Of a stretch of DNA of 51,015 bases, positions 1 through 49,817 are shown one piece after another. This DNA comes from a virus. Taxonomy: Duplodnaviria; Heunggongvirae; Uroviricota; Caudoviricetes. The stretch spans positions 1 to 51,015 of IMG/VR virus record IMGVR_UViG_2721755676_000003. The stretch is one strand, 5' to 3'. Below the pieces are notes generated by a model that saw only the letters and a list, made by a program, of their open reading frames with translations, was not told where the DNA came from and searched no databases. The position numbers and the translations under genes are program-made. The stretch's first letter is position 1. Every line of letters starts with the position of its first letter.

Positions 1-1140
1 CTACACCTTCACTTTCACCCATTCGAGACCGCGATCGTTATGATACTGCGCTGTCATCCTGTCTGATGAGTGACCTAGTAGTTGCCGGGTATTGATGCCT
101 TGCCCCTCATACAGACGCTCCGATAGAGAACGCTGCTCGTGAAAAGTCGGCATTGTTTTCCCATCCTCTACGGAAATGCCAGTACTATCGATCGCGAGTT
201 TGAAGGAGACGCTAAGGCTGTTCTCGCCAACCTGATCGCCTGCTTTCACATTACCGCTTGAGGTCACGTGATGGAGAAGCCAGGGGCTTACGACCCGATC
301 CCTGCATCGCTTGATCACCTGCGCCAGTGTAATATCCAACATCTCGCAGCGTAGCGAGAGCGGTATAGCCAGTTTCGCCCCGGTCTTTTGCTGCTCAACG
401 TGGAGATGACCGTCCCAGACATCAGAGAACTTCATTTTGGCTATATCGCCGCGCCGTTGCCCGGTGACAACTGCCAGAAGCATGGAGTTTTGGACGTAGG
501 GCGCCATATTGGAGGCCGCTTCAAATATCGCCTTCCACATCTCAAGGTTCAGTCGCGAACGACTTACCCGGACAACGACTTTTCTTGTGGCTAGCGCCGG
601 GTTATATCCCGGCTCAACTTCGCCTGCGTGCTGCGCTTCTTTGAACAGGTCAATCCAGACGCTGCGGAGCGTTTGCGCCATTCGTGCTTTGCCTCTGGCT
701 TTATATTCGTCTGTAATGGCTGCCAGCATTTTGGTAGTGACTTCCTGAATGCCAATGTCAGGCATCCTTTCAACCAGTACGTTTGTGCATGTCCTTCTTG
801 ATTTAAGCGTATTAATTTTTATCTCTTTATTGCTGAGCCGCTCCTCCTGAATTTTCAGATACCGTTCAATCCATACGCGCATTCGTATCGATTTCTTGGA
901 ATTAATCTTCTTATGGCTGACCATATCTATCAGGGCAAACGACTGGGCAGCTTCCTGCTGCGCCAGCAGACGATTCAGTTCAGTGGCGGCCAGACTGGCC
1001 GCCTCTTGATCGGTACCAAAACCAATAAACTGACCGGTTAAAGGGTGACGATATTGCCAGTAGGTTTTGCTGTTACGCTTATCCAGCTTGCAATAGAGAT
1101 TTGGTATATTAATCCGGTGATTACGAGGTCTGGCCGCCAT
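1..1140 (-). CDS. int: Phage tyrosine integrase (lambda Int family)
   Basis: 379-aa ORF; C-terminal region (LAVVTGQRRGDI...HEQRSLSERLY...LLGHSSDRMTAQYHNDRG) closely matches recalled lambda Int catalytic motifs (R..H..R..Y); terminal gene reading toward the left window edge. Confidence 0.92.
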   Translation of the reverse strand: MAARPRNHRINIPNLYCKLDKRNSKTYWQYRHPLTGQFIGFGTDQEAASLAATELNRLLAQQEAAQSFALIDMVSHKKINSKKSIRMRVWIERYLKIQEERLSNKEIKINTLKSRRTCTNVLVERMPDIGIQEVTTKMLAAITDEYKARGKARMAQTLRSVWIDLFKEAQHAGEVEPGYNPALATRKVVVRVSRSRLNLEMWKAIFEAASNMAPYVQNSMLLAVVTGQRRGDIAKMKFSDVWDGHLHVEQQKTGAKLAIPLSLRCEMLDITLAQVIKRCRDRVVSPWLLHHVTSSGNVKAGDQVGENSLSVSFKLAIDSTGISVEDGKTMPTFHEQRSLSERLYEGQGINTRQLLGHSSDRMTAQYHNDRGLEWVKVKV

Positions 1141-39818: not shown

Positions 39819-42800
39819 ATGGCTACACCTACCCCGATTAGAGGCCGCAAGGGCGGCAGCTCCAGTTCCCGAACCCCTACCGAACAGCCAGATGATCTGC
39901 AGTCAGTAGCCAAGGCAAAAATCCTTCTCGCCCTGGGAGAGGGGGAGTTTGCTGGTGGCCTTACTACGCGCGATATTTATCTCGATGGCACCGCACTTGA
40001 GAACGCAGATGGTTCACAGAACTTCAGCGGTGTGGCATGGGAGTTTCGTTCTGGAACTCAGGCGCAAAAATACATTCAAGGGATCCCGGGTACCGAAAAT
40101 GAAATCAATGTAGGTTCCGAAGTTTCCAGCACCACCGCATGGACGCGCACGTTCACCAATACGCAGCTATCAGCTGTTCGCCTGCGTCTAAAATGGCCTT
40201 CTCTCTTTAAACAGGAGAACAATGGCGATCTGGTTGGTTACTCGGTTAATTATGCGATTGACCTGCAGACAGATGGCGGCACCTGGCAGACAGTGCTGAA
40301 TACCAGCGTGACCGGGAAAACTACCTCAGGTTATGAACGCAGCCACCGTATTGATTTACCTCAGGCTGGCAGCACCTGGACAATCCGACTGCGTAAGATT
40401 ACCACTGACGCAAATAGCGCGAAGATTGGCGACACGATGACGCTGCAAAGCTTCACAGAAGTAATCGACGCCAAACTGCGCTATCCGAACACCGCGCTAC
40501 TGTACATCGAATTTGATTCGAGCCAGTTCAATGGCTCAATACCGCAAATTTCCTGCGAGCCTCGCGGGCGTGTTATTCGTGTGCCCGATAACTATGACCC
40601 GGAAACACGAACGTACAGCGGCACCTGGACGGGCGCATTTAAGTGGGCATGGACGGATAACCCTGCGTGGATATTTTACGATCTGGTGGTCACTGACCGC
40701 TTCGGCCTCGGTAATCGGCTAACGGCAGCCAATATCGACAAATGGACGCTTTATCAGGTCGCTCAGTACTGTGATCAATCGGTACCGGACGGTAAGGGGG
40801 GGAGCGGAACTGAACCGCGTTACACCTGCAACGTTTACATTCAGGATCGGAATGACGCTTACACCGTCCTGCGTGATTTTGCTGCAATCTTCCGTGGGAT
40901 GACCTACTGGGGCGACGACCAGATTGTTGCCCTTGCAGACATGCCCAGAGATGTCGATTTTACCTACACGCATGCAAACGTTGTTGACGGCAAATTTGTG
41001 TATTCCAGCAGCACAACCAAAAGTCGCTACACGAACGCTCTTGTATCCTGGTCTGATCCGGCAAATGGGTATGCTGATGCAATGGAGCCTATCTTCGAAC
41101 AGGAGCTGGTGGCGCGCTATGGTTTCAACCAGCTTGAGATCACCGCCATCGGTTGCACCAGACAGTCTGAGGCTAACAGGAAAGGGCGCTGGGGGATCCT
41201 GACTAACAATAAAGACAGGGTTGTAACGTTTGACGTTGGCTTGGACGGCAATATTCCTCAGCCGGGCTACATAATTGCTGTTTCTGACCGAAATCTTTCA
41301 GGGAGAGATTTAGGCGGTCGATTATCCGCGGTTAATGGTCGCGTCCTTAAGCTTGACCGGGTGCCAAGTGCTAAGGCCGGTGACAGGATAATGGTAAACC
41401 TGCCGTCGGGTATTACCCAATCCCGGACGATTCAGTCCCAGTCCGGTGAAATGGTCACCGTAACAACTTCCTTTAGTGAACTTCCGCAGGCTGAGGCTGT
41501 ATGGGTAATTGAATCTTATGAACTCTATGCGCAGCAGTACAGGGTAATTAGTGTCACCGATAACAATGACGGGACATATACCATCACGGGGGCAAATCAC
41601 GATCCGGATAAATATGCCCGAATCGATACGGGTGCCATCATTGATCAGCGGCCGGTAAGTGTCATCCCTCCAGGTAATCAGTCGCCGCCAGCCAACATCG
41701 CGATCAGCTCGTTTTCTGTAGTGCAGCAAAATATCAGCGTCGAAACGATGCGCGTGAGCTGGGACCAGGCGCAGAACGCTATCGCCTATGAAGCGCAATG
41801 GCGCCGCAACGACGGGAACTGGGTTAACGTACCGCGCAGCTCCACCACGTCATTCGACGTCTCGGGGATTTATGCCGGGCGCTACTTGGTGCGCGTGCGC
41901 GCAATCAATGCCGCAGAAATTTCATCCGGATGGGGCTATTCAGAAGAGAAAACGCTGACGGGTAAAGTGGGCAATCCACCGAAGCCGGCCGGCTTCATTG
42001 CGTCTGAAAACGTGGTATTCGGCATCGAGCTGAATTGGGGATACCCGGCGAATACCGATGATACGCTGAAGACGGAAATCCAGTACAGCCTGACAGGTAC
42101 CGAAGACGATGCGATGCTGCTGGCCGATGTGCCTTACCCGCAGCGCAAATATCAGCAGATGGGTCTTAAGGCTGGGCAGATTTTCTGGTACCGCGCGCAG
42201 CTGGTGGACCGCAGCGGCAACGAATCAGGTTACACAGAATGGGTGCGCGGTCAGGCCAGTATCGATGTGTCCGACATCACCGATGTGATCCTGGAAGAGA
42301 TTAAAGACTCGGATACCTTCAAGGACCTGATCGAGAACGCGGTGGACAGCAACGAAAAAATTGCTGGCATGGCTGACGAAATCAAAAACCATGCCGACGA
42401 ACTCGAGCAGCAGGCGAAAGACATCCAGGAGAACGCTGACGGGTTGGCGCAGGCCGAAGTGAAGATCGACGAGATTTCTGTGTCTATGGACGGCATGACG
42501 GGAGGCGTGAAAAACTCGGCAATCGCGATTATCCAGAATGGGCTGGCGCAGGTTGTCAGTCGTCGTTCCCAGACAGCAACAAACGCCGGGAATAGCGCCA
42601 GTATAGACCGTGTTGATACGACGATTGCCGATGCCAGCCAGGCGGTAGCACGCGCGCTGGTCACTCTGGATGCAGAAGCTGGTAGCAATATTTCTAACTC
42701 AACAGACCTGACAGAAACACTTGCTGATTTCACACAGGCATCGGCGACAAAAATTAACTCCCTGACGGTTAAATCTGGCGAAAACAGTGCCGCGATAAAC

Positions 42801-43259
42801 GTCAACGCACAGGCTATCGCAGATGTAAACGGTAACCTAAGTGCGATGTACAACATCAAGGTTGGTGTCTCCAGCAATGGGCAGTATTACGCCGCGGGGA
42901 TGGGGATCGGCGTTGAGAACACGCCATCCGGCATGCAGTCGCAGGTTATCTTCCTGGCTGATCGCTTCGCCGTCACCACGGCAGCCGGAAATAGCGTGGC
43001 TTTGCCGTTCGTGATCCAGAGCGGGCAGACATTCATCCGAGCCAGCTTCATCCAGGACGGCACCATTGAGAACGCCAAAATCGGCAACTATATCCAGTCG
43101 AATAACTATGTGGCTGGTTCTGCTGGCTGGAAGCTTGATAAAGGGGGAACGTTCGAAATCAACGGCGTGGCCGGGGGCGGGAGGATGCTGATATCGAGCA
43201 CTCTCATTCGTATCTATGACAGCAACAACGTGCTGCGCGTCAGAATGGGGTTATGGTAA
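39819..43259 (+). CDS. Host-specificity / central tail fibre protein J
   Basis: 1146-aa ORF after I; lambda J-like N-terminal region; FN3-like middle; divergent C-terminus. Confidence 0.85.
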   Translation: MATPTPIRGRKGGSSSSRTPTEQPDDLQSVAKAKILLALGEGEFAGGLTTRDIYLDGTALENADGSQNFSGVAWEFRSGTQAQKYIQGIPGTENEINVGSEVSSTTAWTRTFTNTQLSAVRLRLKWPSLFKQENNGDLVGYSVNYAIDLQTDGGTWQTVLNTSVTGKTTSGYERSHRIDLPQAGSTWTIRLRKITTDANSAKIGDTMTLQSFTEVIDAKLRYPNTALLYIEFDSSQFNGSIPQISCEPRGRVIRVPDNYDPETRTYSGTWTGAFKWAWTDNPAWIFYDLVVTDRFGLGNRLTAANIDKWTLYQVAQYCDQSVPDGKGGSGTEPRYTCNVYIQDRNDAYTVLRDFAAIFRGMTYWGDDQIVALADMPRDVDFTYTHANVVDGKFVYSSSTTKSRYTNALVSWSDPANGYADAMEPIFEQELVARYGFNQLEITAIGCTRQSEANRKGRWGILTNNKDRVVTFDVGLDGNIPQPGYIIAVSDRNLSGRDLGGRLSAVNGRVLKLDRVPSAKAGDRIMVNLPSGITQSRTIQSQSGEMVTVTTSFSELPQAEAVWVIESYELYAQQYRVISVTDNNDGTYTITGANHDPDKYARIDTGAIIDQRPVSVIPPGNQSPPANIAISSFSVVQQNISVETMRVSWDQAQNAIAYEAQWRRNDGNWVNVPRSSTTSFDVSGIYAGRYLVRVRAINAAEISSGWGYSEEKTLTGKVGNPPKPAGFIASENVVFGIELNWGYPANTDDTLKTEIQYSLTGTEDDAMLLADVPYPQRKYQQMGLKAGQIFWYRAQLVDRSGNESGYTEWVRGQASIDVSDITDVILEEIKDSDTFKDLIENAVDSNEKIAGMADEIKNHADELEQQAKDIQENADGLAQAEVKIDEISVSMDGMTGGVKNSAIAIIQNGLAQVVSRRSQTATNAGNSASIDRVDTTIADASQAVARALVTLDAEAGSNISNSTDLTETLADFTQASATKINSLTVKSGENSAAINVNAQAIADVNGNLSAMYNIKVGVSSNGQYYAAGMGIGVENTPSGMQSQVIFLADRFAVTTAAGNSVALPFVIQSGQTFIRASFIQDGTIENAKIGNYIQSNNYVAGSAGWKLDKGGTFEINGVAGGGRMLISSTLIRIYDSNNVLRVRMGLW

Positions 43260-43555
43260 TGCCACAGGGTTTGCAGTGCTGGGACAGTGCAGGTCGGGTT
43301 GCAGTGGATTTAAGCGATTACGCGATCCGTTACATGGGCAGCGCAACGGTTTCGCTTGCTTCAGGAGAGACGTCAAAAAATGTCGCCTTTTCTGGCGCAA
43401 CGCAGGACGGGACGTTTGTCACCATCGTTTCCACTGGCGTGACTGTAAACGAGTATTTTTGCCGCGCTTATAATGGCGGCTTTACTCTCTACTATCTCCC
43501 CACGGGTGGAAGTGCCGCAATCACTCTCAATGTTGAGGTTTATAACTTTCAATGA
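43253..43555 (+). CDS. Hypothetical tail-associated protein
   Basis: 100-aa ORF overlapping the J stop. Confidence 0.4.
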   Translation: MVMPQGLQCWDSAGRVAVDLSDYAIRYMGSATVSLASGETSKNVAFSGATQDGTFVTIVSTGVTVNEYFCRAYNGGFTLYYLPTGGSAAITLNVEVYNFQ

Positions 43556-44193
43556 GCGGATTCGAAGTTTACAACAGCGACGGAAAACTGCTGGTGGATT
43601 CACAAAACAGATCGACCCTTTTTTATGATCAGCGCACGCTGAGTGGCGTCACCGATAAAGGCGCCTACCGCGTTAACAGCCCGTTTGGTGATGGTAGTAC
43701 GCTCGGCTTTACGCAGCAGTCATTCTGGAATGACGGCCGTTTAAGGTGGCTGCAGCTGGGCACGAACAAATACGGTTTTCCTGGTGCTGATATGCTTGAA
43801 GATAATGCTGGTAGCATGATCCGAACTGCGCGAAATATTGGCTTGCAGAGTGGTTATCTCGATGTGTTTGACAGTGCCGGCAGCCTTATCTGGAGCGCTG
43901 CATCAGCCTCAAAGATGCCGAGAGTTGTTGGGTTCTTTGACGTACCAGCTAACTATGACCTGCAGAACAATACCTTTTCAGTCAGTTTAAGCTTCAACCC
44001 TTGGATTCTGGTAAACAACTGCCCGGGAAACCTCAGCGATGATGGTACGGTTGTCGGGTATTCTGGTGTGGTGCTCAAATGGACTGGCTCTCAACTGCAG
44101 GGCAGATACATTTCAAATAACCAGCGCAGCTGGAGCCAGACGTTTCAGGGGCGGGGCCTAAGAATCCCCATCGCTCAGTTTGTTGGCATTTGA
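43552..44193 (+). CDS. Hypothetical tail-associated protein
   Basis: 213-aa ORF, ATGA-coupled. Confidence 0.45.
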   Translation: MSGFEVYNSDGKLLVDSQNRSTLFYDQRTLSGVTDKGAYRVNSPFGDGSTLGFTQQSFWNDGRLRWLQLGTNKYGFPGADMLEDNAGSMIRTARNIGLQSGYLDVFDSAGSLIWSAASASKMPRVVGFFDVPANYDLQNNTFSVSLSFNPWILVNNCPGNLSDDGTVVGYSGVVLKWTGSQLQGRYISNNQRSWSQTFQGRGLRIPIAQFVGI

Positions 44194-44520
44194 GACGGGA
44201 GGAACGTGCGGATAATGAGTCGCGATCATATCTTGTTTTACGCCCTTTGCTGAATTGAAGCGATAAACCACATCCAGCTTATCCGTTTTTTTATAACAAA
44301 TATTACTTAACCGTTTTTTAATATGTCGGCTGAATATTCCGTTGCTGCTGTCTAAAATAACTTCCACCTCTCTGGTGGCACAGTCGATATTAACGTGAAT
44401 ATCGCCACCCAGCGATAAACGAGCGGCATCAACGGGATAGTCCATCTGGAATGCGTTATCTGTGTGTTTGTTCGTACATCCAGCCAACAGCAAAAGCGCT
44501 GCAGCAAATAAAAGTTTCAT
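44158..44520 (-). CDS. Lipoprotein (candidate receptor-blocking / superinfection-exclusion moron)
   Basis: Signal peptide plus lipobox MKLLFAAALLLLAGC; opposite strand; AT-rich; 3' end overlaps the upstream convergent ORF by 36 nt. Confidence 0.5.
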   Translation of the reverse strand: MKLLFAAALLLLAGCTNKHTDNAFQMDYPVDAARLSLGGDIHVNIDCATREVEVILDSSNGIFSRHIKKRLSNICYKKTDKLDVVYRFNSAKGVKQDMIATHYPHVPPVSNANKLSDGDS

Positions 44521-44646
44521 TTCAACATTCCTGTTTATGCGGGAACTTCCATTTTATTTGAGTTTAAAAAATAGTCAGATTGGTATGAGCGATCAATTTT
44601 AAATGATTGATCGCTTTTAACGATCTTTATTATCGTGAGGTAGTTT

Positions 44647-45912
44647 ATGCTTTATAACACCGGCACCATCGCAATTAACGGAAATACCGCAACCGGTACT
44701 GGCACAAACTGGACGGCACCAGTCAGCCAGGTTCGCGCTGGCCAGACGATTATCGTGATGTCTAACCCGGTGCAGCTGTTCCAGATTTCATCTGTGGACA
44801 GCGCCACGTCAATGACGGTTACGCCTGCCGCTTCCCCGGCGCTGAGCGGCCAGAAGTACGGCATTCTGATATCAGACAATATCTCTGTAGACAGCCTGGC
44901 GCAGGCGATGTCGCAGCTCATCAAAGAGTATGATGAGAATATCGGCGCCTGGGAGACGTTCGCTACCACATCCGCAAATCAGACTATCACCGTTACTATC
45001 AACGGATCTTCCGTAAATATTCCGGGCATAGGTGCACTTGCCAGAAAGGGGGCGAATAGCGATATCACGGAGCTGAAAGGGCTCACTACTGCGCTTTCTA
45101 TTGCACAGGGTGGCACCGGGGCAACGAAGGCAGAAGACGCTCGCACAAACCTCGGTTTAGGAAGTAGCGCGACGAAGGACGTCGGAACTGCCTCCGGGAA
45201 TGTCATGCAAGTTGGGGCGGGCGGTTTTTTGGTTAGTACGCCTACATTGATAGCAGAAAACAACAGCCGCTATCCTTCAAGCTTTATGCGATCTGGTGGA
45301 GGGAGTGGGAAAATTGGATTCGGCTCTGGTATTTATTGCTCCTACGATGACTCCATTTGCTTTCATCTCCATATTCAGGGTAATGGTGAACTCCATTATA
45401 GATATTTGAATGCTGGCCTTATTACCTATGACTACGTTGCTTACTCTACAGGAAACACCACAAAGGCGAGCGATGGCACCCTAAAAGCTGCGTCCCCGGT
45501 TGCCCGTATCGTAGCGAGCCAGGAAGCCTGCCAGCGCGTTGATATAGCGGAGGATGGATTCGCATGGTGCGGCTGTGGAACGGCGAACTCTGAGGCGGAG
45601 GGAATAACTCTTTCTCGCCTCGACGTAGGTGTTTACGTGATCGCGGGTTCGGCAGGTCTGGCGTCAGAGGGATGGCAACTGCTGCCGCCAATGGACCCTG
45701 GCGGAATGGGAGAGCTGGGTGTAGTTGAGGCAGAGCAAACCGAGAACGGCGAGCTGACAATCCGCCTGTTTAAGCGCAGATACATGCTGAGCGATGACGG
45801 AGAGATGATCAAAACCAAAGGAGAGCTGATGGATGTTCCGGCGAACAGCTGGATCGATGTTCGCCTGGATATGCCCGCAGATTCACTGTTTAACCAGCGA
45901 ATGAGTCAGTAG
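44647..45912 (+). CDS. Side tail fibre protein (constant N-terminal part plus currently fused variable C-terminal segment)
   Basis: 421-aa ORF, RBS GAGGT; Gly/Thr/Ser-rich fibre repeats; internal gix-like recombination site at about 45140-45165. Confidence 0.7.
   Translation: MLYNTGTIAINGNTATGTGTNWTAPVSQVRAGQTIIVMSNPVQLFQISSVDSATSMTVTPAASPALSGQKYGILISDNISVDSLAQAMSQLIKEYDENIGAWETFATTSANQTITVTINGSSVNIPGIGALARKGANSDITELKGLTTALSIAQGGTGATKAEDARTNLGLGSSATKDVGTASGNVMQVGAGGFLVSTPTLIAENNSRYPSSFMRSGGGSGKIGFGSGIYCSYDDSICFHLHIQGNGELHYRYLNAGLITYDYVAYSTGNTTKASDGTLKAASPVARIVASQEACQRVDIAEDGFAWCGCGTANSEAEGITLSRLDVGVYVIAGSAGLASEGWQLLPPMDPGGMGELGVVEAEQTENGELTIRLFKRRYMLSDDGEMIKTKGELMDVPANSWIDVRLDMPADSLFNQRMSQ
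45140..45193. repeat. Left inverted repeat with gix/hix-like crossover site (..CACAAACC TC GGTTTAGGAAGT..)
   Basis: Matches recalled gix consensus AAACC-TC-GGTTTACAGGAA; inverted partner at about 46539-46580; inner arms about 18/20 identical (gcgacgaaggacgtcggaac versus gcaacgaaggacgttggaac). Confidence 0.5.
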
Positions 45913-46578
45913 GCTGAGGCTTAGTGTTTCCCTCTAATGCGCTGACGCGGGTTGCCAGCGCTTTGATTGCCGCCAGCCCATCGAGCAACATTGGTGTCTG
46001 ATCGAGATGCAGCAGACCGCCAATTTGCTTTACATATTCTGGGTCGATTTTCTCTATTTGCTGAGAGATAACCCCGCGCCGTGGGGGTTGAGTTTCATCA
46101 TCTTTAAAGGTGAAGTGCTTGAATTCCATCCGGCAGATATTCAGCAATGCCTCTTCCAGATCGAGGTCATCACCGATGTTTTTCATAGTTCTGTCGGACA
46201 CCGCCGAAGTTAAAATTTCTTTCCACGGTGCCCAGGCATTGGTATTAAAACCTCTGTAAAAGAACCGCCCGGCATCTGTTTGCGTGGCATAAGGCAAGAT
46301 AAATTGAGTCGATGCACCGCTGCTGCCTACAATTCGGACATAGTTTTGAATATACCCGTATCCGCTTGCCGCTGGTGGGTTTACAGCGGTAGTGAAATTG
46401 ATGAGGTTAGGAAAAACACCAGGGTTCCGCGCATCATTCAAATTGATGGTGTTTGAAGGTAAAGCCGAGTCAATCTGGAAGAACCTGTAGGCGTCCACCG
46501 GCCCCCCAAGTCCACCGACAACCTGAACGTTTCCTTCGCTCGTTCCAACGTCCTTCGTTGCTGATGTTCCTAAACCTA
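45890..46578 (-). other. Alternative tail-fibre C-terminal segment (S'v-like), promoterless, within invertible segment
   Basis: Minus-strand ORF whose 5' end begins at the right inverted repeat with ...LGLGTSATKDVGTSEGNV..., paralleling the plus-strand ...LGLGSSATKDVGTASGNV...; the ORF-track N-terminal extension is antisense to the invertase remnant. Confidence 0.5.
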
Positions 46579-46580
46579 GA
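46539..46580. repeat. Right inverted repeat / gix-like site
   Basis: Reverse complement of ..GTTCCTAAACC TA GAGGGAGTTG.. gives GGTTTAGGAAC plus the shared inner arm. Confidence 0.45.
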
Positions 46581-46792
46581 GGGAGTTGATTGTGGAGCGC
46601 ACCCGGGCAGGTCTGGCTGCAGCTCGTGAGAAATGGCGAATCGGCGGCAGGCGTCCGAAGCTTACCCAGGAACAATGGGATCAGGCGGGCCGACTTATTG
46701 CGAACGGCCTGGACAGGAATCAGGTAGCGATAATTTATGACGTTGCTGTATGCACGCTTTATAAAAAATTCCCTCCTTCAAAAAAGGCTTAA
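46580..46792 (+). pseudogene. DNA invertase (Gin/Pin/Hin serine recombinase) remnant: C-terminal HTH domain only
   Basis: RELIVERTRAGLAAAREKWRIGGRRPKLTQEQWDQAGRLIANGLDRNQVAIIYDVAVCTLYKKFP matches the C-terminal roughly 70 aa of Gin/Pin; the frame opens exactly at the right gix-like site; no N-terminal catalytic domain upstream. Confidence 0.6.
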
Positions 46793-46929
46793 ATCTGCTC
46801 ACATAGAGTTTAGGCAATAAAATTTACAAAACTCGTAATCCGAAGCGACATAGAAACTTATAAACGAAACGGCGAAGCTTTAAACAATCAGGATAGGTCC
46901 TCTGTCTTGCATGCATACCCAAATGAAAC

Positions 46930-46949
46930 TACTGTATATAAAGACAGTA
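46930..46949. promoter_or_regulatory. LexA (SOS) box upstream of umuD
   Basis: TACTGTATATAAAGACAGTA (CTGT-N8-ACAG) about 15 nt upstream of the umuD ATG. Confidence 0.7.
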
Positions 46950-46964
46950 CAAAAGGTGTGCACT

Positions 46965-47384
46965 ATGGAATTTATCAGGCCTGCGGAACTGCGTGAAATT
47001 CTCGCTCTCCCGCTTTTCAGTGACTTAGTTCAGTGTGGTTTCCCAAGTCCAGCAGCTGATTACGTTGAACAACGTATCGATCTCAATGAGTTACTTGTCG
47101 CTCACCCGAGCTCAACGTATTTCGTCAAAGCCGCGGGCGATTCTATGATCGAAGCCGGGATCAGCGACGGTGATCTGCTGGTAGTGGACAGTTCCAGGAC
47201 TGCTGAGCATGGTGACATTGTCATCGCTGCGGTGGAAGGGGAGTTCACTGTTAAACGCCTGCAGCTGCGCCCGACCGTGCAACTCAATCCTATGAACAGC
47301 GCCTACAGTCCGATTGTTGTTGGCAGTGAAGACACACTGGACGTGTTTGGCGTTGTTACTTTCATCGTTAAATCTGCGAGCTGA
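46965..47384 (+). CDS. umuD: UmuD (Pol V accessory subunit, LexA-like S24 self-cleaving peptidase)
   Basis: [72 protein letters not shown]... near-identical to recalled E. coli UmuD; includes the Cys-Gly cleavage site and Ser/Lys dyad. Confidence 0.9.
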
Positions 47385-47386
47385 AC

Positions 47387-48655
47387 ATGTTTGCGCTCTG
47401 TGATGTGAATTCGTTTTACGCATCATGCGAGACGGTGTTTCGGCCCGATTTGAGAGGGCGGCCAGTAGTTGTTCTCTCGAATAATGACGGCTGCGTAATC
47501 GCGCGCAGCGCCGAGGCCAAAGCCGCCGGAATTACCATGGGAGAGCCTTTCTTTAAGCAAAAGGATCTATTCCGGCGCGCTGGTGTTGTTTGCTTCAGCA
47601 GTAACTACGAGCTGTACGCAGACATGTCGAACCGGGTAATGACGACGCTTGAGGAAATGAGCCCCCGCGTCGAAATTTACAGTATCGATGAAGCTTTTTG
47701 CGACCTGACTGGCGTTCGCAACTGCCGGGACCTGACTGACTTCGGCAAAGAAATTCGTTCTACGGTTCTAAAGCGTACGCACCTGACGGTTGGGGTTGGA
47801 ATTGCGCAGACAAAAACGCTCGCTAAGCTGGCCAATCACGCCGCGAAGAAGTGGCAGAGGCAGACGGGTGGAGTTGTTGATTTGTCCAATATCGATCGCC
47901 AGCGTCGGTTATTGGCAATTGTGCCTGTGGAGGATGTCTGGGGCGTCGGCAGGCGCATCAGTAAGAAGCTAAACGCCATGGGCATCAAAACGGCTCTGGA
48001 TCTCTCAGAACAAAGCACATGGATTATCCGTAAACATTTTAACGTGGTACTCGAGCGAACGGTCCGGGAGTTGCGCGGAGAGCCTTGTCTTGAGCTGGAG
48101 GAGTTTGCGCCGGCAAAGCAGGAAATCGTCTGCAGCCGATCGTTCGGCGAGCGCGTCACGGACTATGAGCAGATGCGTCAGGCTATCTGCAGCTATGCGG
48201 CGCGTGGCGCCGAAAAGCTTCGCGGCGAGCATCAGTATTGCCGTTTTATCTCGGCGTTCGTTAAGACGTCACCTTTTGCCCTGAATGAGCCATATTACGG
48301 TAATAGTGCGTCCATGAAGCTTCTTACTCCCACTCAGGATTCCCGCGACATCATCAACGCCGCGGTAAAGTGCCTGAACAAAATCTGGAAGGACGGCCAC
48401 CGCTATCAAAAAGCAGGAATCATGCTTGGGGATTTTTTCAGCCATGGTGTGGCTCAGCTCAACTTGTTCGATGAGAACGCGCCGCGCGAAGACAGCGCGC
48501 AACTGATGCAGATCCTTGACCAGCTCAATGCCAAAGGAGGAAAGGGCACACTCTACTTTGCAGGGCAGGGAATTCAGCAACAATGGCAGATGAAGCGAGA
48601 AATGCTTTCTCCGCGGTATACGACCCGCTTCCAGGATTTATTAATTGTTAAATAA
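47387..48655 (+). CDS. umuC: UmuC (Y-family translesion DNA polymerase V catalytic subunit)
   Basis: [41 protein letters not shown]... canonical UmuC N-terminus; 422 aa. Confidence 0.92.
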
Positions 48656-48723
48656 ATGCAGGACATTATGGTCAAAATAAAGTATCTTATTCAGGCACTT
48701 ATAAATACTTAAATGGAATTGAT

Positions 48724-49131
48724 ATGTTAAAACCTATTCTCGCATTAGCAGTTCTTACCTTATCTGGGTGTGCAATTATCCAAGAGCCTCCAAAACATGG
48801 CACTCCTGACGCTGTATATACGACTAAGAGCGATGCAAAAAGCGTTGCATTATGCATTGCTGATGTCTTTGCAGATTACGACCCTTACATCAAAGCTCGC
48901 TATAAAGAAGAATTCTGGGGTTATAAAATTAATTATTCCGCCGGGCAATATGGCGAAGCTGAAATTTACAAGAAAAATAACGTTACCACTGTGAATTATT
49001 TTGGTCAGAATAATTCAGACAAGAAAATGGTAAAGCATCTTAAAGACGGCATCCAAAAATGTGTAAATAAGGTGTACGACATGTCTCCAGTGGGTGGTAA
49101 GCAGCCAGATGGAAGCGTAAAACTCTGGTAA
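48724..49131 (+). CDS. Lipoprotein of unknown function
   Basis: Signal peptide plus lipobox (LAVLTLSGC); AT-rich. Confidence 0.55.
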   Translation: MLKPILALAVLTLSGCAIIQEPPKHGTPDAVYTTKSDAKSVALCIADVFADYDPYIKARYKEEFWGYKINYSAGQYGEAEIYKKNNVTTVNYFGQNNSDKKMVKHLKDGIQKCVNKVYDMSPVGGKQPDGSVKLW

Positions 49132-49145
49132 TATCTGTCAGGATA

Positions 49146-49817
49146 TCACTGAATATTATCAATCAATTCAGCACCCTGATTTTTTGGATTATCAACGGCA
49201 CGCGACACTGCGTGCCAGATAAACTTGTCGGCGTCCACTGTGCCGTCGGCCGCTATCTCTTCAGCTTCTTTCCCGCCTATATCCTGCCGCATCCATTCGC
49301 GAGCTGCTTCCGGCGACAGAACCAGTGGCCGGCGGTCGTGAATTTCGACCAGTCCTTTGTCAGCTGCAGACGTCACTATCAGAAAACCTTCTGCTTCATC
49401 GCCGCGCTCAAACGGTGTGCTGCCGATCGCCGCCATGAAAATCGGCTGTCCGTCGGCGCGGTGAATGAAGTAGGGCTGCTTCTTGTCACCTTCCTTCTTC
49501 CATTCGAACCATCCATCCGCAAAGCAGATCGCCCGGCCATGCTGCCAGAGGGGCTTAAACATTCGACTGGTGGCCGCAGTCTCGACACGCGCGTTAATCA
49601 GTGGTGGTTTATCCCACCACCCGGGCGCGTAACCCCAGAAAACCGGATCAAGATGCAGTTGCTCGTCGCGTTCGCTCAGCAACAGAACTTTGGTACCGGG
49701 CGCGACGTTGTACCGGCCAATCGGCTCAGGGTCATATGCTATGTCGCGATCGGCTTCATCGGCCAGGTAAGCAAGATATTCTTCACGGGTTTGGGCTTGT
49801 GCAAAACGTCCACACAT
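49146..49817 (-). CDS. SOS-response-associated peptidase (SRAP, YedK/HMCES family)
   Basis: Begins MCGRF (catalytic Cys2), 223 aa; family hallmarks recalled. Confidence 0.8.
   Translation of the reverse strand: MCGRFAQAQTREEYLAYLADEADRDIAYDPEPIGRYNVAPGTKVLLLSERDEQLHLDPVFWGYAPGWWDKPPLINARVETAATSRMFKPLWQHGRAICFADGWFEWKKEGDKKQPYFIHRADGQPIFMAAIGSTPFERGDEAEGFLIVTSAADKGLVEIHDRRPLVLSPEAAREWMRQDIGGKEAEEIAADGTVDADKFIWHAVSRAVDNPKNQGAELIDNIQ

Follow-up and report, generated by a model that had tools for sequence, protein, structure and literature searches.

A lipoprotein encoded against the tail operon of a lambdoid prophage as the probable superinfection-exclusion partner of a receptor-binding module of predicted PqqU/YncD type

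Introduction

Exclusion proteins that are encoded next to a receptor-binding protein (RBP) and act on the receptor from the periplasm are already known, with Llp, Rtp45 and Cor as examples. Cor of phages T1, phi80, HK022 and N15 is a lipoprotein encoded in the tail-fibre region that excludes phages sharing its TonB-dependent receptor. Llp of T5, directed at FhuA, and Rtp45, directed at LptDE, are small lipoproteins of the inner leaflet of the outer membrane that are encoded beside the RBP gene, bind their own receptor periplasmically and abolish RBP binding; the Llp-FhuA and Rtp45-LptDE complexes have been solved (PMC9586334, PMC12685063). Here we analyse a lipoprotein gene on the minus strand of IMG/VR virus record IMGVR_UViG_2721755676_000003 (positions 1 to 51,015; this whole stretch of 51,015 nucleotides is referred to as the window), the product of which is a homologue of SIP-1, a protein of the Drexlerviridae phage IsaakIselin (Bas10), and probably the exclusion protein of the RBPs encoded beside it.

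SIP-1 (QXV80559) was put forward in 2025 (PMC12124388). It carries a signal peptide, Foldseek likens it to the C-terminus of TonB, AlphaFold2-multimer docks it on PqqU from the periplasmic side, and it is predicted to be a superinfection-exclusion factor; RBP-1 (QXV80560) and RBP-2 (QXV80561) are modelled as a dimer on the extracellular face of the same transporter. PqqU is the current name of YncD, a TonB-dependent high-affinity importer of pyrroloquinoline quinone (PQQ). An exclusion role for the family, PHROG 25729, has therefore already been predicted, for a protein of a lytic phage and by computation only.

In the BASEL paper, genes directly 3' of the J homologue are described as 'bona fide RBP loci', the alleles of which match the terminal receptor; IsaakIselin was found to need YncD, by knockout and complementation, and phage IME347 is listed as YncD-dependent from earlier work. 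In a 2026 preprint covering 255 phages, one protein family at the RBP locus goes with YncD, and two temperate phages are given YncD as their receptor with only the structure of the locus as a basis.

Results and Discussion

A SIP-1 homologue beside homologues of RBP-1 and RBP-2

The locus comprises the following features.

39819-43259, plus strand: J-like central tail fibre or tail tip protein, 1146 amino acids
43253-43555, plus strand: RBP-2 homologue, 100 amino acids, PHROG 7961
43552-44193, plus strand: RBP-1 homologue, 213 amino acids, PHROG 4524, PF28254 (DUF8377)
44158-44520, minus strand: SIP-1-like lipoprotein gene, 120 amino acids, ATG start, PHROG 25729
44476-44520, minus strand: signal peptide and lipobox, codons 1-15, read directly
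44476-44478, minus strand: codon of Cys15
Between signal and core of the lipoprotein: tether of 12 residues
44206-44442, minus strand: residues 27-105, predicted core resembling a TonB C-terminal domain
Residues 106-120 of the lipoprotein: C-terminal tail, low confidence
44528-44532, minus strand: Shine-Dalgarno sequence AGGAA, 7 nucleotides before the lipoprotein ATG, read directly

The lipoprotein is 31% identical to SIP-1 (QXV80559, bas10_0024) by BLASTP (E=9e-15), and a profile search recovers its Drexlerviridae homologues at E of about 1e-40. The two open reading frames (ORFs) on its plus-strand side match the remaining members of the IsaakIselin module: the 213-residue product is 50% identical to RBP-1 QXV80560 (E=5e-72) and the 100-residue product is 35% identical to RBP-2 QXV80561 (E=4e-16). 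Homologues about 50% identical to the 213-residue protein are found within the Drexlerviridae in IsaakIselin and JohannLBurckhardt, which are BASEL phages, and in IME347, which also holds the three-gene module of RBP-2, RBP-1 and SIP. The RBP alleles linked to the lipoprotein are of the YncD/PqqU type. PqqU/YncD is the predicted receptor of this prophage and of HK639/LLS-type lambdoids.

Several features of the SIP-1 group are present in the window: homology placing the protein in SIP-1/PHROG 25729, an export signal in the form of the lipobox LLAGC, and homologues of RBP-1 and RBP-2 directly after J. What an earlier note on this DNA had called the J-distal ORFs is thus a receptor-binding module made up of RBP-2 and RBP-1 homologues, which is thought to attach to the J-like tail tip protein.

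The lipoprotein gene is real and conserved

The encoded protein starts MKLLFAAALLLLAGCTNKH in translation. Its signal consists of a short positive n-region (MK), a hydrophobic core of about 11 residues (LLFAAALLLL) and the lipobox LLAGC, with Cys15 followed at position +2 by Thr rather than Asp, from which Lol-dependent sorting to the outer membrane is predicted. The lipobox was called by reading the sequence directly and from its conservation across the prophage clade.

The protein matches PHROG 25729 over its full length (1e-67), and homologue searches returned 50 and 95 cluster representatives. Databases list an identical protein from E. coli (ANQ00916.1) and from further Enterobacteriaceae, in each case under the name 'hypothetical protein', while the best matches in E. 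coli RefSeq complete genomes are partial and 83% identical. Against 56 distinct nucleotide sequences the median ratio of non-synonymous to synonymous substitution rates (dN/dS) is 0.066, and the gene is under strong purifying selection. Over the last 15 codons the proportion of synonymous differences (pS) falls to 0.34 from a core value of 0.63, a drop that dual-frame coding would be expected to produce. The ORF is a real conserved prophage gene, not a chance reading frame.

The earlier note had described a minus-strand, AT-rich lipoprotein gene of 120 codons with the lipobox LLAGC and a 36-nucleotide 3' overlap with the upstream plus-strand ORF. All of this holds: the gene has an ATG start and Cys15, shares positions 44158-44193 with the convergent ORF at 43552-44193, and has a GC content of 0.43 (0.44 at third codon positions, GC3), compared with 0.53 (GC3 0.60) for J, 0.505 for RBP-1 and 0.496 for the window. 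The 126-nucleotide spacer upstream of the gene has a GC content of 0.31. A prophage moron is classically recognised by its location on the strand opposite to the late operon, by low GC content and by a promoter of its own, and the moron-like anatomy of this gene is real: opposite strand, low GC content and a promoter-like site of its own.

The lipoprotein gene travels with the receptor-binding genes

Nine genomic and 80 viral-contig loci with the lipoprotein gene were examined, and J, RBP-2, RBP-1 and the tail fibre were mapped in each. The last of these is the divergent neighbour of the lipoprotein gene in the window:

44647-45912, plus strand: side tail fibre gene, 421 amino acids, Phage_tail_C_2

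In every prophage-type locus with sufficient flank, the order is J, RBP-2, RBP-1 and a convergent lipoprotein gene, and in the Enterobacter/Escherichia clade RBP-1 and the lipoprotein gene overlap as they do in the window. In the Drexlerviridae (NBD2, IsaakIselin, IME347, KL3), the order is RBP-2, RBP-1, SIP, with all three genes co-directional and converging on J.

Sequence identities at these loci co-vary. By a measure that is crude, the identities being to a single reference (the window copy) and the sequences being related, lipoprotein identity correlates with RBP-1 identity at a Spearman coefficient of 0.72 and with RBP-2 identity at 0.62, compared with 0.32 for the J C-terminus and 0.21 for the equally near N-terminus of the tail fibre. 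This co-variation indicates that the lipoprotein, RBP-1 and RBP-2 genes move as one module; by the same test, the side tail fibre gene is not part of it.

Four degraded loci (L040, L049, L051 and L077) keep the lipoprotein gene and the tail fibre and have lost J. RBP-2 is wholly lost in L040, L051 and L077 and mostly lost in L049, and only part of RBP-1 is retained in L040, L051 and L077; in L040 (6001-11602), RBP-1 is cut to 119 amino acids and is followed by genes with LprI and RES domains. These loci may represent retention of the exclusion gene after prophage decay.

A fold resembling the TonB C-terminal domain

An alignment of 69 family members shows eight invariant residues (Y28, P29, A32, R34, S36, G39, C47 and C75), and the motif YPVDAARLSLGGDIHVNIDC is similar to YPxxAxxxxxEGxVxVxF, by which TonB C-terminal domains are recognised. 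The AlphaFold2 model of the lipoprotein has a mean predicted local distance difference test (pLDDT) score of 75.8, with core residues 30-90 at 85-94. When this model was searched against the PDB with Foldseek, ranks 1-8 were all TonB C-terminal domains, among them TonB bound to BtuB (2gsk_B) and to FoxA; the top match was 7zc8 (E=0.011, probability 1.0), with a target-normalised TM-score of 0.56. The family profile, searched against all PDB sequences, hit just two chains (E=0.065 and 0.44), each of them a TonB C-terminal domain, and the NCBIfam TonB equivalog matched lipoprotein residues 28-88 at E=0.045. Finally, hhalign aligned the family with residues 158-215 of E. coli TonB, including the YP motif (E=0.0014, probability 17%, with a TonB sequence entered by hand). 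Four independent tests thus agree on TonB likeness, each with modest statistics, and the modelled fold is that of a TonB-C-terminal-domain-like protein.

The lipoprotein is not built as a TonB energy transducer: in place of the N-terminal ExbB/ExbD helix it has a 15-residue lipoprotein signal, and its linker of 12 residues contains no Pro-rich tract. A fold search of BFVD returned only unnamed members of the lipoprotein family. A weak Pfam match to RNase_H2-Ydr279 (E=0.011, below cut-off, in 3 of 15 members) was treated as noise.

One domain, three anchors

When the N-termini of the homologues were sorted, three clades emerged. The lipobox anchor is found in the prophage/lambdoid clade of Escherichia, Enterobacter, Kosakonia, Lelliottia and Franconibacter. 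The Drexlerviridae homologues have a cleavable signal peptide ending AMA|FN without a lipobox Cys, and are therefore predicted to be soluble in the periplasm. In the third clade, that of KW1E_UTAR-like 45-kb phages, an N-terminal extension of 90-250 residues is followed by a hydrophobic segment, and these proteins would have an inner-membrane-anchored, TonB-like topology. Lipobox, signal peptide and transmembrane segment, as predicted, all agree with a periplasmic site of action. The invariant Cys47 and Cys75 would fit an oxidising compartment, with a presumed disulfide between them.

In the KW1E_UTAR-like proteins (P0051-P0054, P0076 and P0080-P0093; gene at 1982-2752 of L006 in KW1E_UTAR), the SIP-like domain forms the C-terminal third of 170-330 residues, and the N-terminal region of these proteins has no Pfam match. 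In phages of this type the SIP-domain gene lies 16-28 kb from the RBP-1 homologue.

Expression signals and intergenic structure

Two elements were identified in the spacer between the lipoprotein gene and the side tail fibre gene.

44551-44578, minus strand: sigma-70-like promoter, CTGACT-16 nucleotides-TAAAAT, about 30 nucleotides upstream of the lipoprotein ATG
44587-44616, plus strand: perfect 12-bp palindrome, hairpin of the type AGCGATCAATTT...AAATTGATCGCT, followed by TTTT, conserved among loci

The promoter-like hexamers are conserved in 56 distinct upstream sequences, and the palindrome sits between the promoter and the side-tail-fibre start. The plus strand of the spacer (44521-44646, 126 nucleotides) folds at -34.1 kcal/mol (z = -4.5 compared with shuffles). 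It contains a further hairpin at 44529-44544 (plus strand) with a T-rich tail, which, like the palindrome, is conserved among the 56 loci. These hairpins might terminate transcription between the RBP module and the side tail fibre, or serve the lipoprotein promoter as an operator. For the lipoprotein gene itself, a candidate terminator-like site lies at 44133-44121, inside the RBP-1 coding sequence.

Proposed function: receptor inactivation

We propose that the lipoprotein probably serves a host-recognition module specific for PqqU/YncD as its cognate superinfection-exclusion protein, inactivating the receptor. In this proposal, the pre-protein would be exported and lipidated at Cys15, and the 12-residue tether would hold a small, disulfide-containing domain of TonB C-terminal fold at the periplasmic face of the outer membrane. 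The tethered domain would dock from the periplasm on the TonB-dependent transporter PqqU, the receptor that the RBP-2/RBP-1 pair on the J tail tip would recognise from outside, and would leave it unable to bind the pair. Because the gene would be transcribed from its own putative promoter, against the late tail operon, expression in the lysogen and/or early after infection is possible. The cell would be protected from PqqU-using phages, including lambdoid relatives and lytic Drexlerviridae, and progeny would be spared from adsorbing to debris. For the lipoprotein, we infer lipidation, PqqU binding, the exclusion phenotype and the timing of expression.

The earlier note had seen a candidate receptor-masking or virulence moron. 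Its exclusion reading gains support from homology to SIP-1 and synteny with RBP genes, and none from the resemblance to Cor on which it had leaned: Pfam, PHROGs, NCBIfam and PADLOC gave no match to Cor, Llp, Lom or Bor, the first and third being the families that the note had in mind. A Pfam scan at E up to 10 returned neither Ail_Lom nor Lambda_Bor for the lipoprotein, and neither Llp nor Rtp45, each of which has a PDB entry, appears among the PDB sequence and fold matches. FhuA, which the note had named as a receptor, gives way to PqqU, since the receptor-binding genes linked to the lipoprotein carry YncD/PqqU-type alleles, and nothing points to a role in virulence.

Several observations weigh against the receptor-inactivation proposal. 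The role of SIP-1 in PMC12124388 derives from AlphaFold and Foldseek and from nothing else. The TonB similarity is remote, with sequence E-values of 0.001-0.07 and the hhalign probability given above, and the TM-scores are modest, at about 0.42 query-normalised and 0.56 target-normalised. No true TonB came out of an exhaustive hidden Markov model (HMM) search of 1.84 billion representatives, which returned only 22 cluster representatives at E up to 0.001; the family is therefore small, phage-restricted and TonB-related at fold level only. The KW1E_UTAR-like phages have the domain as part of a longer protein, the gene of which does not neighbour that of the RBP-1 homologue, so that linkage to RBPs is not universal. 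Lastly, the promoter-like site is one consensus match, and the regional count of such sites does not exceed the shuffle expectation.

As to how docking might inactivate PqqU, a tentative and rather doubtful variant is that the lipoprotein acts as a tethered TonB decoy at the PqqU Ton box: TonB could not then pull the plug, and PQQ-loaded PqqU would stay loop-closed and refractory to phage. PqqU captures PQQ with sub-nanomolar affinity. According to PMC12124388, 1000-fold less PQQ blocks IsaakIselin in a tonB deletion strain, an effect that suggests this variant because denial of TonB would mimic it. If true, the decoy would cost every lysogen high-affinity PQQ scavenging, a trade-off of lysogenic conversion, and would be a natural template for transporter-specific TonB-box inhibitors.

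Turning to the alternatives, the protein may act in the same molecular way in the lytic cycle only: the lysogen would not express it, and its synthesis after induction would keep released virions from being lost to PqqU in envelope debris, with no role in immunity or lysogenic conversion. The BASEL authors gave debris adsorption as the rationale for Cor and Llp, the same rationale would serve here, and purely lytic Drexlerviridae keep the homologue. However, in the temperate clade the gene lies on the opposite strand, with lower GC content and its own conserved sigma-70-like promoter, and degraded prophage loci keep it after the loss of J and RBP-2. We consider a role confined to the lytic cycle unlikely.

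Ton boxes are similar between transporters, and the lipoprotein fold resembles a generic Ton-box-binding domain; both would favour a broad TonB antagonist, an outer-membrane decoy that occupies the Ton boxes of many transporters and blunts all TonB-energised uptake as well as TonB-dependent phages and colicins. Against this, the gene is specifically tied, in both co-variation and linkage, to a single family of RBP alleles, and the model in PMC12124388 places SIP-1 on PqqU with high confidence, although the accessible text reports no controls with other transporters. A general block of iron and B12 uptake would also be costly to a lysogen, and broad antagonism seems to us quite improbable.

An unrelated envelope moron in the variable region after J, whether a Bor/Lom-like virulence or serum-resistance protein or an o-spanin-like lysis lipoprotein, is very improbable: lambdoid phages do carry envelope and virulence genes near the tail-fibre region, and the gene does encode a small lipoprotein of atypical composition, but there is no match to the Lambda_Bor, Ail_Lom or spanin families, the gene lies outside any lysis cassette, and a virulence function leaves unexplained the homologues beside RBP genes in strictly lytic coliphages and Klebsiella phages.

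Prophage context and neighbouring genes

The window is a complete lambdoid prophage that begins with the following gene.

1-1140, minus strand: integrase

RecT/RecE-type recombination genes, a helix-turn-helix repressor and an O-type replication gene follow, and then the head and tail genes, the last of which is that of the J-like protein. Among sequenced phages, the nearest relatives are the lambdoids HK639, LMessi, CharmingMan, Eeyore, LLS and Flotzy, in all of which the same three genes are present and annotated as hypothetical. Our literature search found no paper on phages LMessi, CharmingMan, Flotzy or BananaBelafonte, and the LLS paper says nothing about the receptor or gene 21. Scanning the window for Rfam families and tRNA genes gave no hits.

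Homologues of RBP-2 align from residue 3, and its start may be Met3 (43259), giving the 98-residue product called in some assemblies; both candidate starts overlap the end of J. For the RBP-1 homologue, the DUF8377 (PF28254) assignment comes from precomputed Pfam results, and the local Pfam copy did not report it. Its N-terminal 133-158 residues have 32-36% identical matches in the Acinetobacter phages Presley, CP14 and XC38, and full-length matches occur in Cronobacter, Pantoea and Enterobacter phages. The N-terminal portion may act as a common docking domain, and receptor specificity may lie in the C-terminal portion.

The side tail fibre gene carries a Mu/P1-like invertible segment, with inverted repeats at 45151-45188 and 46542-46579 (38 nucleotides, 79% complementary). 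An alternative C-terminal fibre exon with a Peptidase_S74 chaperone domain lies on the minus strand within the ORF at 45890-46675. The adjacent invertase is a remnant of 68 amino acids (46586-46792) that matches only residues 118-180 of the 182-residue LLS Fin; as its catalytic domain is deleted, the segment would be frozen unless flipped in trans. Two loci with an identical lipoprotein (L097 and L098) have a 380-residue fibre and different deletions at the invertible segment, which suggests past inversion and ongoing decay.

Further downstream are genes for a UmuD-like Peptidase_S24 protein (46911-47384), a UmuC-like Pol V protein (47387-48655), a 135-residue protein without known function and an SRAP/YedK-like protein (49146-49817), with CinA from 50497 onward. 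A umuDC pair also follows the module in other contigs. The stretch at 46911-49817 may represent either cargo for SOS mutagenesis at the end of the prophage or flanking host DNA.

Comparison with known systems

The analysis supplies a testable function for a gene listed as a 'hypothetical protein' in prophages of E. coli, Enterobacter, Lelliottia, Kosakonia and related hosts. If the proposal is true, lysogens would resist PqqU-dependent lytic phages considered for therapy, and the family would show a single exclusion domain put to use in lipid-anchored, soluble and transmembrane-anchored forms. A viral version of the TonB docking domain might also offer a starting point for the blocking of single TonB-dependent transporters.

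With the C-terminal domains of TonB (E. coli TonB, 2GSK; FusB, 7ZC8), the window protein appears to share the alpha/beta fold and the YP…G.V.V motif region, and, like them, it would be expected to contact a TonB-dependent transporter from the periplasmic side. It differs in its predicted anchorage in the outer membrane, its lack of an ExbBD-coupled transmembrane helix and a proline-rich spacer, its putative added disulfide, and its membership in a phage-restricted family with no HMM bridge in either direction.

With Llp, Rtp45 and Cor, the lipoprotein shares the arrangement of an outer-membrane lipoprotein encoded beside a receptor-binding gene. By analogy it would work as they do, without being a member of their families. 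Llp and Rtp45 have no sequence or fold similarity to it, act on other receptors, and are not TonB-like; Cor acts on FhuA and has no PHROG, Pfam or NCBIfam similarity to the window protein.

The closest relative is SIP-1, to which the window protein is homologous (31% over the core), with the same PHROG, the motif YPV[DE]A[AS]R.SL.G and the same two Cys residues. The two also have in common a predicted TonB-C-terminal-domain-like fold, periplasmic export, and a gene beside RBP-1 and RBP-2 just after a J-like gene. SIP-1 and the other Drexlerviridae members have a cleavable signal peptide (…NAMA|LN…) and no lipobox Cys and are expected to be soluble, whereas the window protein would be lipid-anchored through its 12-residue tether and has an extra C-terminal tail of about 15 residues. 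The Drexlerviridae trio is co-directional and converges on J; in the window the RBP genes come after J, inversion is confined to the lipoprotein gene, with its 36-nucleotide overlap of RBP-1, and the host phage is temperate. As the idea has been published for the lytic-phage homologue, the gain is one of extension and annotation rather than discovery: a lipid-anchored, opposite-strand, temperate-phage branch of the SIP-1 family, an invariant module structure in intact prophage-type loci, a three-anchor pattern, and a PqqU prediction for HK639/LLS-type lambdoids.

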